Both the position numbers and the translations under genes were made by a program. The notes below the pieces were generated by a model. It was not told the origin of the DNA. It was given only the letters and a program-made list of their open reading frames with translations, and ran no database searches. From Candidatus Omnitrophota bacterium (GTDB lineage Bacteria; Omnitrophota; Gorgyraeia; Zapsychrales; JAKLDJ01), in NCBI GenBank assembly GCA_022703585.1, contig JAKLDJ010000001.1:374891-438890 (forward strand): a DNA stretch of 64,000 nucleotides, read 5' to 3'. Shown here in pieces: positions 60,353 through 62,014 of the stretch. Within the stretch, counting starts at the first letter, position 1; each line of letters begins with the position of its first letter.

Positions 60353-62014
60353 TCAGCGTTTATCTAAATTATAGACGATCGGAACCGTAACGGTTAAATC
60401 TCTGAGGTTTAAATCGGAAGGAAAAGCGGTGTAGGGCGCCAAACTCTTGGCGGTATTAAGGGCATCCGTATCAAAAAGGTCATAGCCTGAAGATTCTTTT
60501 ACGCTCGCACCTGCCAAGGTTCCGTCGCTTAGAATATGCAGCCCCAACTTTACCGTCCCCTCCCATCCATATTGCCTGGCCCTCTCAGGGTAAGCGATTC
60601 GTTCGGCAATCCTTTGCTGGATTAAGCGGATATACGGCACTACCTCCTGAGGGACCATGGTTTTTGTCGCCATGGGCCCGTCGGAGACAAAGGATTTTGA
60701 AGAGACCGCCGCTTCCGGCGGTTCGAGTTCATTCATTTGCGATTCATCCGATGCTTCCTGGATGATATTGTTTTTCTCCTGCGCCAGGTCGGCCGGAGAG
60801 ATTTGTTTTAAAATCGTTGGGGTGAGAGTAATAAATAATTCCGTGTCGCTGTTGGGAGAAAAGGACGTATGCCGAAAGACCGCGCCAAGAACCGGTATAT
60901 CGCTAAGAATCGGTATCCGCTTAACGGTTTTTCCCTCGTTATGCTTAATCAGTCCGGCCATAACAACCGTCTGGCTGTTTTCAAGATAAAGCTGGGTTTG
61001 GGCAGTTCGGGTGGTATAGGCGACAGTGTTTCCAACGCTGTTTCCGGTATCAACATCACTCACGGTAAGGCTAAGGTTTATATCGATCTTCCCGTCGCGT
61101 ATCGTTGGGCTGACAGTGAGGCCAACGCCATAATCTTTAAATTGAATATTTTCTGTGACCGTGCCTCCAGAAGAGGTGGATGTTGTCGAAATGGGGATTT
61201 GCCCTCCCACCTGGAAACTGGCCGAAGTACCGCTTTTGCAGACGAGCTTTGGCTTGGAAAGAACTCGCCCTTTGCCTTCGGTAATCAGAGCATCCACTTT
61301 GGCGATAATGTTGGTGGTGCGGTGAAAATCCCCGATCTTTAGGAAATCGGTCGGGGTCTTGGGGTTAAAAGAGGGAAGTGTTTCGGTGTACGTCAATGCA
61401 CTGGTCCATTCGAATCCCATACTTTTACTGAAACTGGCCGTAAGCTCTGCTATCTGGGCGTCGATTTGAACAAGGTCTTCTTCAACTCTCTCCTTGGCTA
61501 TATTGATAATGCTGCTGCCGAACGGCTCCAGCACTTTGCTAACCGCGTCTTTTTTAGTCGAAGAATATTCGCCGGAAACGATGAGCTTGCCCTCAAGGAC
61601 ACTGATCTCCGTCTTTAAACCCTTAACGTCGGATTCGGCTAAGAGTTGCTGAATACGGGCTCTTACCAAATTCAAGTCTTCGTCAAAAACACGGATATCG
61701 ATCGAGCGTTTTCCGTATTTATCCCAAATAAACATTGTGGTCAGGCCGGACTGTTTGGCAAGTATCAGGATCTGTTCCTTGTCATATTTGACGACGTCGG
61801 CAACTTCCGGGCGGGTCAAGGCAACGCGGGTAAGATCAAAGACCTTGATGGTTTCCAGGTCCCCTTTTAGCAAGCTGATAGCGTCATCGTTGACGGGCCT
61901 GGACATTCCGTCATAAGAATTGTCGGCCGCCTTCAGGAGAACAGGCGCCCCGACAATCAGAACCAAGCCAACCAGTGCCGCTGCTGCTTTTGGGATACCG
62001 GGAAATAGTCTCAT
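60353..62014 (-). CDS. CpaC/RcpA-type secretin with a fused C-terminal TonB_C domain (553 aa).
   Basis: Signal peptide MRLFPGIPKAAAALVGLVLIVGAPVLLKAA. Secretin core ...GRVLSKPKLVCKSGTSASFQVGGQIPIS...QLYLENSQTVVMAGLIKHNEGKTVKRIPILSDIPVLGAVFRHTSFSPNSDTELFITLTPTIL. C-terminal ...AYPERARQYGWEGTVKLGLHILSDGTLAGASVKESSGYDLFDTDALNTAKSLAPYTAFP...LTVTVPIVYNL matches the TonB C-terminal fold signature. Confidence 0.75.
   Translation of the reverse strand: MRLFPGIPKAAAALVGLVLIVGAPVLLKAADNSYDGMSRPVNDDAISLLKGDLETIKVFDLTRVALTRPEVADVVKYDKEQILILAKQSGLTTMFIWDKYGKRSIDIRVFDEDLNLVRARIQQLLAESDVKGLKTEISVLEGKLIVSGEYSSTKKDAVSKVLEPFGSSIINIAKERVEEDLVQIDAQIAELTASFSKSMGFEWTSALTYTETLPSFNPKTPTDFLKIGDFHRTTNIIAKVDALITEGKGRVLSKPKLVCKSGTSASFQVGGQIPISTTSTSSGGTVTENIQFKDYGVGLTVSPTIRDGKIDINLSLTVSDVDTGNSVGNTVAYTTRTAQTQLYLENSQTVVMAGLIKHNEGKTVKRIPILSDIPVLGAVFRHTSFSPNSDTELFITLTPTILKQISPADLAQEKNNIIQEASDESQMNELEPPEAAVSSKSFVSDGPMATKTMVPQEVVPYIRLIQQRIAERIAYPERARQYGWEGTVKLGLHILSDGTLAGASVKESSGYDLFDTDALNTAKSLAPYTAFPSDLNLRDLTVTVPIVYNLDKR

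Follow-up and report, generated by a model that had tools for sequence, protein, structure and literature searches.

The closest described relatives of the protein reported here are the RcpA/CpaC secretins of Tad/Flp loci (P. aeruginosa RcpA-TadD, structure 8odn; structures 8jvb and 9wfd), which are encoded after cpaB/rcpC and combine an N-domain with a β-barrel. Canonical members are ~420-455 aa long, and the final residues of the short coil at their C-terminus bind the TPR lipoprotein TadD (PMC10499894); the N-domain is the canonical docking site of the CpaB/RcpC ring, RcpC binding to the N-domain of RcpA (PMC12307814). In type IVa systems, one or several wall-binding modules, often in tandem, fix the secretin in the envelope (the AMIN domains of PilQ, and the LysM domains of TsaP and FimV; PMC5285504). 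TonB-family proteins have been connected to secretin-based pilus machines through PocAB-TonB3 of P. aeruginosa, although TonB3 is a separate, motor-coupled inner-membrane protein whose interaction with PilQ has only been speculated (PMC5285504). The C-terminal domains of TonB, TolA, HasB and FusB (5lw8, 6sly, 9dc4, 7zc8, 1lr0) share a fold and the signature YP…G.EG.V…SSG…P.…F/Y.L, and reach their partners from the inner membrane by way of a motor-bound anchor and a rod that spans the periplasm; those of TonB and TolA engage their targets through β-strand addition (PMC12204202). [quoted passage not shown] Apart from the roles of TadD as pilotin and of the RcpC ring, little is established on what positions a Tad secretin and keeps it in place in the envelope.

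Omnitrophota are ultra-small, probably predatory or parasitic bacteria. We analyzed a window of 64,000 nucleotides from a Candidatus Omnitrophota genome (contig JAKLDJ010000001.1), in which one gene encodes a Tad-type secretin extended at its C-terminus by a TonB C-terminal domain. The gene and the regions of its product are as follows.

60353..62014, (-) strand: Tad-type secretin with a C-terminal tethered TonB_C module, 553 aa (ORF list, Pfam and NCBIfam; AF2 model with a mean pLDDT of 80.7)
61925..62014, (-) strand: signal peptide region, aa 1-30, without a lipobox Cys (sequence MRLFPGIPKAAAALVGLVLIVGAPVLLKA/AD; hydrophobic helix 9-32 in the model)
61688..61879, (-) strand: N-domain, T2SS-T3SS_pil_N, aa 46-109 (Pfam E 1e-8; modeled as all-β with pLDDT >90)
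60806..61472, (-) strand: secretin β-barrel core, aa 181-403 (Pfam Secretin, Foldseek and family identity)
60641..60805, (-) strand: predicted post-barrel helix (aa 407-425) and disordered low-complexity tether (aa 426-458), pLDDT <50 at 425-451
60356..60640, (-) strand: TonB_C module, aa 459-553, modeled as α-α-β-β-α-β (Pfam; pLDDT ~90; Foldseek)

The fusion of the Tad secretin with TonB_C is real. An assembly or annotation artefact, in which a lost stop codon or a frameshift merged two genes, is refuted by three observations: positions 60353..62014 on the (-) strand form one uninterrupted frame of 553 codons that contains the peptide quoted in the initial annotation, with no stop between the Secretin and TonB_C domains on re-inspection; the identical 553-aa protein is called on 18 independent contigs, eight of which exceed 1 Mb; and the fusion is kept in every listed homologue, across many independent assemblies. 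The initial annotation had read the product as a CpaC/RcpA-type secretin joined to a TonB C-terminal domain, and profile HMMs, the predicted fold and conservation all bear this out. Its description of a single extra domain of about 120 aa holds insofar as there is an additional C-terminal part; this part, however, divides into a tether of ~55 aa and a globular module of ~95 aa (459-548).

Both domains were matched above curated cutoffs in the Pfam search of the ORF. Secretin (PF00263) covers aa 242-403 over all 169 profile positions (1-169 of 169; E 2.7e-40, 138.1 bits against a cutoff of 27.5), and TonB_C (PF03544) covers aa 473-550 over profile positions 3-79 of 79 (E 5.8e-17, 62.4 bits against 24.6), with a concordant NCBIfam match to tonB_Cterm (TIGR01352; 55.1 bits against 27.1). 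At the N-terminus, a match to PF13629 (35.2 bits against a cutoff of 23) takes the place of the N0/STN and AMIN domains. By sequence, the nearest solved structures are 8jvb and RcpA 8odn; in Foldseek comparisons, the barrel of the AF2 model matches 9wfd (E 1.5e-27) and 8jvb (E 8e-21), and the model further matches XcpQ, GspD, InvG and RcpA 8odn, in agreement with the double β-barrel protomer fold of solved secretins. PDB 6ve2 (PilQ-TsaP) is also among the Foldseek matches of the model. The modeled C-terminal module superimposes on TonB C-terminal domains, with a TM score of 0.79 and an rmsd of 2.4 Å over 93 columns for 5lw8, and a TM score of 0.78 and an rmsd of 1.5 Å for 9dc4_T, so that the prediction that the C-terminal tail adopts the TonB C-terminal fold is supported. 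The module also carries the sequence signature of those domains given above.

The fusion is conserved across the phylum Omnitrophota. Secretin and TonB_C occur in one frame in all 120 homologues listed (39-85 % identity), and every named organism among these is a member of the phylum. Mean family identity to the query is 58 % for the TonB_C module, 56 % for the barrel and 11-15 % for the tether, and the signal peptide region is 15 % conserved; being as conserved as the barrel, unlike the tether, the module appears to be under selection. Of the 150 best matches to the module in a search of 1.84 billion representatives, about 109 retain the fusion, and no classical membrane-anchored TonB is among these nearest relatives. 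Short matches lacking a secretin domain were considered as free TonBs and rejected, as they are fragments whose N-termini correspond to the tether or to the end of the secretin domain; when the 96-aa module by itself served as the query, no more than six fragments were retrieved, all from tiny contigs. In 22 of the 120 listed homologues there are two TonB_C modules in tandem. The first modules of these proteins are 62 % alike among themselves and only 51 % alike to their own second module, which indicates that the duplication is old and that both copies have been retained. The tether is highly variable across the family (median 58 aa, from ~40 to ~200 aa) and rich in A, E, S, K and P (P 7.6 %).

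The surrounding genes form a Tad locus, with CpaB/RcpC, the CpaF/TadA ATPase, TadB/TadC and Flp pilins encoded around the secretin gene.

62901..63842, (-) strand: SurA/PpiC-like peptidyl-prolyl isomerase with a lipobox (…LAVSGC), first gene of the operon (Pfam Rotamase_2/SurA_N_3; N-terminal sequence)
62048..62896, (-) strand: CpaB/RcpC periplasmic alignment protein ending in a tether and TIEIFK (TIGR03177, 105 bits; Pfam RcpC)
58192..60351, (-) strand: fused MinD/ParA-like (CpaE/TadZ-type) and CpaF/TadA ATPase (Pfam, NCBIfam; 65-82 % identical in related loci)
57838..58182, (-) strand: DUF192 protein, a conserved operon member (Pfam; synteny)
49362..53729, (-) strand: array of Flp-type pilins and pseudopilins with a G/QST.EY class III signal motif (translations; Flp_Fap and Class_IIIsignal matches)
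43722..45597, (-) strand: TadB and TadC platform proteins with T2SSF domains (Pfam)

The CpaE/TadZ-CpaF/TadA fusion gene starts 1 nt downstream of the secretin gene. Gene order is conserved in the 10 related loci over the stretch that each contig covers: the SurA-like gene is syntenic in eight of them, and the other two contigs stop short of it. A giant ORF of at least 14,199 aa follows directly downstream of the Tad locus, an arrangement that recurs in Omnitrophota. Neither the ~30 kb of the locus nor the related loci yielded a TPR/TadD-type pilotin; a gene for TadD or for some other pilotin may lie elsewhere on the genome. An ORF upstream of the SurA-like gene on the parent contig (L015, 7058-7810) was considered as a pilotin and rejected: its composition is odd, it resembles neither the gene that occupies this position in L016 nor, by tblastn, anything in L001-L010, and it is probably not a real gene. 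A search of the locus and its flanks for ExbB/ExbD and TonB-dependent transporters found none.

The locus has already been published as a T2SS-like/Tad locus beside Omnitrophota giant genes, with the secretin gene named gspD/RcpA and the fusion unmentioned. The initial annotation's remark that the combination was undescribed can be kept in part: our literature search found no paper on a Tad secretin-TonB_C fusion, although the identical protein and many of its relatives are deposited under the names 'TonB family protein' or 'CpaC'. The phylum-wide spread of the fusion, the two-module variants and the TonB_C arrays on TolC-like channels go beyond what that annotation had noticed.

Compared with the RcpA/CpaC proteins, the gene product is the outer-membrane secretin of a Tad/Flp pilus machine from Omnitrophota, a secretin in which the short TadD-binding tail, as found in Pseudomonas RcpA, has been replaced by a flexible tether ending in a module of TonB_C fold (one or two modules in the family), with no TadD gene found in the locus. 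Since the C-terminal residues of RcpA are the TadD-binding site (PMC10499894), the C-terminus of a secretin is placed on the periplasmic face, where it likewise serves an accessory interaction; by analogy with this known topology, the module would be periplasmic. We consider the module most likely, with moderate confidence, to be a motor-less periplasmic anchor of the Omnitrophota Tad secretin, with the wall or a β-strand partner as putative ligand. If the ring has 13-14 subunits, 13-14 modules would be displayed in the outer-membrane-proximal periplasm, and 26-28 in the two-module variants. Acting passively, without an ExbBD/TolQR motor, they would fix or position the secretin in the envelope by holding either the cell wall or an exposed β-strand of an outer-membrane-proximal partner caught by β-strand addition, and would thereby provide an anchoring or assembly function that in other secretin systems is supplied by TadD, AMIN domains or TsaP. 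A tether of ~40 to ~200 aa suits a target close to the outer membrane, for instance the wall layer; at its shortest it would probably not span the distance to the inner membrane reliably. The tandem duplication also supports anchor-like behavior of the module. The earlier suggestion that the domain could anchor the channel to peptidoglycan or to a partner protein is a reasonable one.

With regard to the wall as ligand, we know of no established case of TonB_C as a peptidoglycan-binding domain; Kaserer et al. reportedly observed in 2008 that E. coli TonB binds murein, which is limited evidence. The resemblance to the type IVa accessories is one of concept: PilQ AMIN domains, TsaP and FimV have other folds, the AMIN domains are N-terminal, the pilus class is different, and wall binding by the module described here is putative. 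The Wzi-like fusion is similar in joining a motor-less TonB-C covalently to an outer-membrane protein, and differs in barrel family, phylum and operon context; it is likewise functionally uncharacterized.

Attachment of TonB_C is not specific to Tad in Omnitrophota. TolC-like OEP channels of the phylum carry three to six TonB_C modules behind a signal peptide (P0214, P0261/P0132, P0268, P0269), and secreted or lipoprotein tandem TonB_C arrays are also present (P0208, P0240). A search with a 6xTonB_C-OEP protein recovered two further TonB_C+OEP clusters, the word index used handling repeats poorly. One OEP-TonB_C gene adjoins a gene of >2,294 aa. The OEP-attached modules are only ~30 % identical to the secretin module, so their ligand may differ. 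A wider and tentative possibility, which we would not yet call probable, is that the TonB C-terminal domain was co-opted in Omnitrophota as a general periplasmic anchor, independent of any motor, for unrelated outer-membrane channels (one or two copies on secretins, three to six on TolC-like proteins). It would tether outer-membrane machines to the wall or to a common envelope partner in place of pilotins and AMIN/LysM-type anchors, possibly bracing the pilus machine against the forces that pull on it when the cell lives as a predator or parasite. A literature search on outer-membrane tethers in Omnitrophota found none.

The presence of a TonB_C fold might suggest energy transduction, with the proton-motive force of an ExbBD-, TolQR- or Poc-type motor coupled to the secretin, and PocAB-TonB3 is indeed needed for the assembly and localization of type IVa pili in P. 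aeruginosa (PMC5285504). Here, however, the domain is borne by the outer-membrane protein itself, whose N-terminus is a signal peptide followed by a secretin, without a membrane anchor or a motor-binding helix (SHLS-type motif); the tether has no Pro-rich rod, ExbB/ExbD genes were not found in the locus, and in TonB itself it is the outer-membrane partner, not the motor, that the C-terminal domain contacts. Hanging from an outer-membrane channel without anchor, rod or motor, the module is set apart from those of TonB, TolA, HasB and FusB, and the energy-transducing reading, which we regard as barely credible, is contradicted by the architecture: the protein is not a TonB. Another reading is that of a built-in pilotin. 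The module would then serve biogenesis only, helping monomers to reach the outer membrane or the ring to assemble in place of TadD, by binding a BAM/Lol-associated or outer-membrane lipoprotein strand or by self-associating around the ring, and would be no permanent anchor. Its position is that of the S-domain or TadD-binding tail of other secretins, no TadD-like gene was found in the locus, and a gene for a SurA-like chaperone is conserved at the head of the operon. Nevertheless, a long, highly variable tether and tandem duplication are untypical of S-domains that bind a pilotin, a module of this kind is also present on TolC-like proteins, which need no pilotin, and no candidate partner was identified, so that this explanation appears unlikely.

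Two further proposals concern the ligand of the module. The CpaB of the window and those of nine related Omnitrophota loci end in a variable tether followed by I-[Q/E]-[I/V]-F-[R/K], which could be captured by the module as a TonB-box mimic, creating a second link between alignment ring and secretin; β-strand addition is the canonical binding mode of TonB_C, and cpaB and the secretin gene are adjacent in one operon. We have downgraded this to a rather improbable reading because proteobacterial CpaBs whose secretins lack TonB_C carry the same tail motif (Ralstonia ...GVEIIRAGK, Sulfitobacter ...IVTVFRGQGG), the C-terminal hairpin of RcpC is already known to bind the N-domain of RcpA (PMC12307814), and CpaBs with a single tail are paired with two-module secretins; TonB_C modules are, in addition, found on TolC-like proteins. 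It is still harder to argue that the module is a docking site for a cargo or surface protein, holding TonB-box-like strands of the downstream giant protein or of another exported substrate and coupling it to Tad or TolC-like channels. Both the recurrent position of the Tad locus directly upstream of the giant ORF and the OEP-TonB_C gene beside a very large gene fit such a role, but these are arguments from position alone, every listed family member carries the fusion, and the conserved Tad locus already accounts for the adjacency to the giant gene; we judge it very unlikely.

Under the preferred reading of a passive periplasmic anchor, Omnitrophota would have arrived at a different solution to the holding of a Tad secretin in the envelope, with a TonB-fold binding module hard-wired to the pore. 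Should the module prove to be an anchor, one of the commonest periplasmic domains would gain a new function, and the label 'TonB family protein' in Omnitrophota genomes would be no sign of TonB-dependent uptake. In one recent survey of Omnitrophota, genes with a TonB domain beside giant genes were counted as 'TonB-domain content', and these may be the Tad secretin described here. The practical effect would be modest unless the ligand proves unexpected; the module and its ligand would nonetheless offer a testable handle on the envelope biology of an uncultivated phylum.

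The gene is a single minus-strand ORF of 553 codons without internal stops (window 60353-62014), and the peptide quoted in the initial annotation, which had read it as a CpaC/RcpA-type secretin with an extra C-terminal TonB_C domain, is the C-terminal part of this ORF. That reading was borne out by a Pfam search, in which both domains scored above their curated cut-offs in the same ORF; NCBIfam concurs (tonB_Cterm, TIGR01352, 55 bits), and at the level of sequence the TonB_C match is far beyond chance. A structure model was generated with AlphaFold2 from an 83-sequence family alignment (mean pLDDT 80.7).

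Features of the secretin-TonB_C protein
N-terminal end: hydrophobic signal helix (model)
aa 46-109: T2SS-T3SS_pil_N (Pfam, E 1e-8, above curated cut-off)
Ahead of the secretin sheet: all-beta N-domain, then alpha/beta domain (model)
aa 181-402: secretin sheet (model)
aa 242-403: Secretin (Pfam, E 2.7e-40, 138 bits, above curated cut-off)
aa 407-425: post-barrel helix (model)
aa 425-451: disordered stretch (model, pLDDT <50)
aa 459-548: confident alpha-alpha-beta-beta-alpha-beta module (model, pLDDT about 90)
aa 473-550: TonB_C (Pfam, E 5.8e-17, 62 bits vs cut-off 24.6, profile positions 3-79 of 79)

In Foldseek comparisons with the PDB, the secretin body of the model resembles 9wfd (E 1.5e-27), 8jvb and RcpA (8odn), and the C-terminal tail resembles the H. 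pylori TonB C-terminal domain (5lw8; TM 0.79, 2.4 A) and the TonB globular domain in 9dc4 (TM 0.78, 1.5 A), with FusB, TolA and HasB among the further matches to the tail. A PDB sequence search agrees, returning secretins for the body and TonB C-terminal domains for the tail.

An assembly artefact was rejected, as 18 contigs from independent samples, eight of them longer than 1 Mb, encode the identical protein, and Secretin and TonB_C occur in one protein in all 120 homologues listed (39-85 % identity); the N-domain is likewise present in every one of these with a complete N-terminus. Among the matches listed, all homologues with a source name are from Candidatus Omnitrophota, including Ca. 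Aceula and Ca. Zapsychrus, and within this scope the fusion is a lineage trait. The species-representative genome loci are labelled either Omnitrophota or with the ENA placeholder 'uncultured Planctomycetales'; on the syntenic loci L001, L002, L007, L009 and L010 the latter is probably a taxonomic mislabel. The same probably holds for P0262 (cluster of P0223), a family member of more than 1,000 aa deposited as 'Candidatus Hydrothermarchaeota archaeon', a label that may stem from an Omnitrophota symbiont co-binned with its archaeal host. The module alone, searched exhaustively against 1.84 billion representatives, gave 7,319 matches at E<=1e-3 (281 at E<=1e-10); secretin fusions account for about 109 of the 150 best matches and pieces of such fusions for most of the others, and none of these 150 is a classical membrane-anchored TonB.

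In the listed homologues, barrel and first module are separated by a median of 58 aa (interquartile range 52-79, overall about 40 to about 200 aa) of low-complexity tether in which A, E, S, K and P are abundant. Identity to the query is 48 % in the N-domain, 56 % in the barrel and 58 % in the TonB_C module, vs 11-15 % in the post-barrel helix and tether, which argues that the module is selected as strongly as the pore and that the tether merely has to tether. Two tandem modules, spaced by about 31 aa, are carried by 22 of the 120 listed members; because first modules share more with one another across proteins (62 %) than with the second module of their own protein (51 %), the duplication is ancient, and neither copy has been lost.

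The secretin gene is the third in a tight operon with gaps of 4, 33, 1 and 9 nt.

Genes of the Tad locus, in order (all minus strand)
62901-63842: operon gene 1, SurA/PpiC-like lipoprotein (peptidyl-prolyl isomerase; lipobox LAVSGC, Asp at +2)
62048-62896: operon gene 2, CpaB/RcpC
60353-62014: operon gene 3, secretin-TonB_C
58192-60351: operon gene 4, fused MinD/ParA-like and CpaF/TadA ATPase
After the ATPase fusion: operon gene 5, DUF192 protein
54438-57374: 978-aa protein without Pfam match
51180-53729: Flp-type pilins, at least seven paralogues
Downstream of the pilins: pseudopilin-like proteins, then TadB and TadC
1-42597: open frame of at least 14,199 codons, running off the left window edge

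The order from the SurA-like gene to the pilins is kept in ten related genome loci, to the extent covered by each contig, and also in the locus of one two-module variant. The isomerase, retained as the first gene, may serve the pilus machine as a dedicated chaperone. CpaE/TadZ-type and CpaF/TadA proteins are ordinarily distinct; here one 719-aa ORF joins a MinD/ParA-like (CpaE/TadZ-type) part (aa 4-250) to a CpaF/TadA secretion ATPase (aa 327-658), and no other gene of the locus is as conserved (65-82 % identity in related loci). In the 978-aa protein an N-terminal segment is HTH-like, about 450 aa form a low-complexity region rich in P, E and K, and all related loci retain the C-terminal half (aa ~500-978). 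Window 45643-46047 (minus strand) and L016, a further locus (7057-8103), encode Flp-type pilin-like proteins whose C-terminal parts are very rich in cysteine. The long frame directly downstream is one of the Omnitrophota 'giant genes' and begins with a TM helix and a Peptidase_C39-like domain (E 6e-9). Past the right window edge, just upstream of the operon on the parent contig (L015 121-6814), lie possible regulators of the operon: a response regulator, a multi-PAS sensor protein of 1,710 aa that also has a receiver domain, and a hybrid histidine kinase of receiver-HisKA-HATPase architecture. The locus is the 'T2SS-like' one described upstream of Omnitrophota giant genes (gspD, gspE, gspF, rcpC, a Rotamase_2 PPIase and class III signal peptides; bioRxiv 10.1101/2023.11.21.568195) and the Tad complex discussed for the phylum in PMC10066038; neither source mentions TonB.

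By HMM and fold the tail is a member of the TonB_C family, but every other defining feature of TonB that was examined is absent from the protein. Energy transduction was rejected: the protein has neither an inner-membrane anchor nor a Pro-rich rod, no ExbB/ExbD is encoded near its gene, and the domain is carried by the outer-membrane protein itself. Since TonB_C is the end of TonB that contacts the outer-membrane partner, the fusion by itself cannot transduce proton-motive force, and the PGAP name 'TonB family protein' is misleading. In a recent Omnitrophota survey, two 'TonB-domain' genes that flank giant genes were counted as TonB-domain content; judging by the structure of the locus, they may be secretin-TonB_C genes.

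TonB_C also occurs on other proteins. TolC-like OEP channels of the same phylum (P0214, P0261/P0132, P0268, P0269; two of the four clusters named Omnitrophota by NCBI) carry three to six modules in N-terminal tandem after the signal peptide, and in L011 (6001-8391) such a gene adjoins one of >2,294 aa. The proteins P0208, P0240, P0191 and P0210 consist solely of two to four tandem TonB_C/TonB_2 modules, secreted or lipoprotein-anchored, with no membrane anchor or other domain. The OEP channels and the secreted or lipoprotein arrays (P0208, P0240) favour a general envelope ligand over a Tad-specific partner, with the caveat that OEP-attached modules share only about 30 % identity with that of the secretin.

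The last four residues of RcpA bind the lipoprotein TadD, which places the C-terminus of Tad secretins on the periplasmic face, at the barrel rim (PMC10499894). By this topology the tethered modules, one or two per subunit, would hang in the OM-proximal periplasm. E. coli TonB reportedly binds murein. The C-terminal domains of TonB and TolA bind targets by beta-strand addition (PMC12204202). Four features, namely a highly conserved module beside a freely evolving tether, the ancient tandem duplication, the short minimum tether and the lack of a TPR/TadD-type pilotin gene in this and the related loci, are more readily reconciled with a passive anchoring module than with a specific role in catalysis or signalling. 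We therefore prefer a motor-less periplasmic anchor of the secretin, a reading we hold to be about evenly balanced between right and wrong; its two candidate ligands, the wall layer and an OM-proximal beta-strand partner, are given about the same probability.

Capture of the CpaB C-terminal tail by the module is suggested by the ending of CpaB in every related locus, a tether followed by I-[Q/E]-[I/V]-F-[R/K], which resembles a tethered TonB box. However, the same tail is found in the CpaBs of Ralstonia and Sulfitobacter, whose secretins are plain 445-454-aa proteins, module copy number does not covary with it, and the RcpC C-terminal hairpin is known to complete the RcpA N-domain sheet (PMC12307814); the tail is therefore ancestral and probably N-domain-binding, and its capture by the module improbable. 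From Omnitrophota to Proteobacteria, CpaB/RcpC (window 62048-62896, minus strand; L001-L010, L013, L014, L016) ends in a low-complexity linker and a short conserved strand, h-x-h-h-R/K-G, by which it probably docks on the N-domain of the secretin. It is possible that the module acts in biogenesis only, as a 'built-in pilotin', and the only argument for its docking the giant protein is positional, from where the giant ORF lies relative to the Tad locus.

The query shares its N-domain, secretin barrel and locus context with the Tad secretins RcpA and CpaC and departs from them at the C-terminus, their TadD-binding part. If the modules anchor the pore, the AMIN domains of PilQ and the LysM proteins TsaP and FimV (PMC5285504) would be functional analogues. 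Among published architectures, the nearest precedent that we found joins a secreted TonB-C to the barrel of a Wzi-like OMP (PMC12419801); P. aeruginosa PocAB-TonB3, needed for type IVa pili (PMC5285504), is a looser link. The initial annotation had considered the combination undescribed for Tad secretins, and no description was found in the literature searched, most subscription journals lying outside it. Assembled from two well-known parts and with a putative function, the secretin-TonB_C fusion is real, conserved and apparently unremarked.
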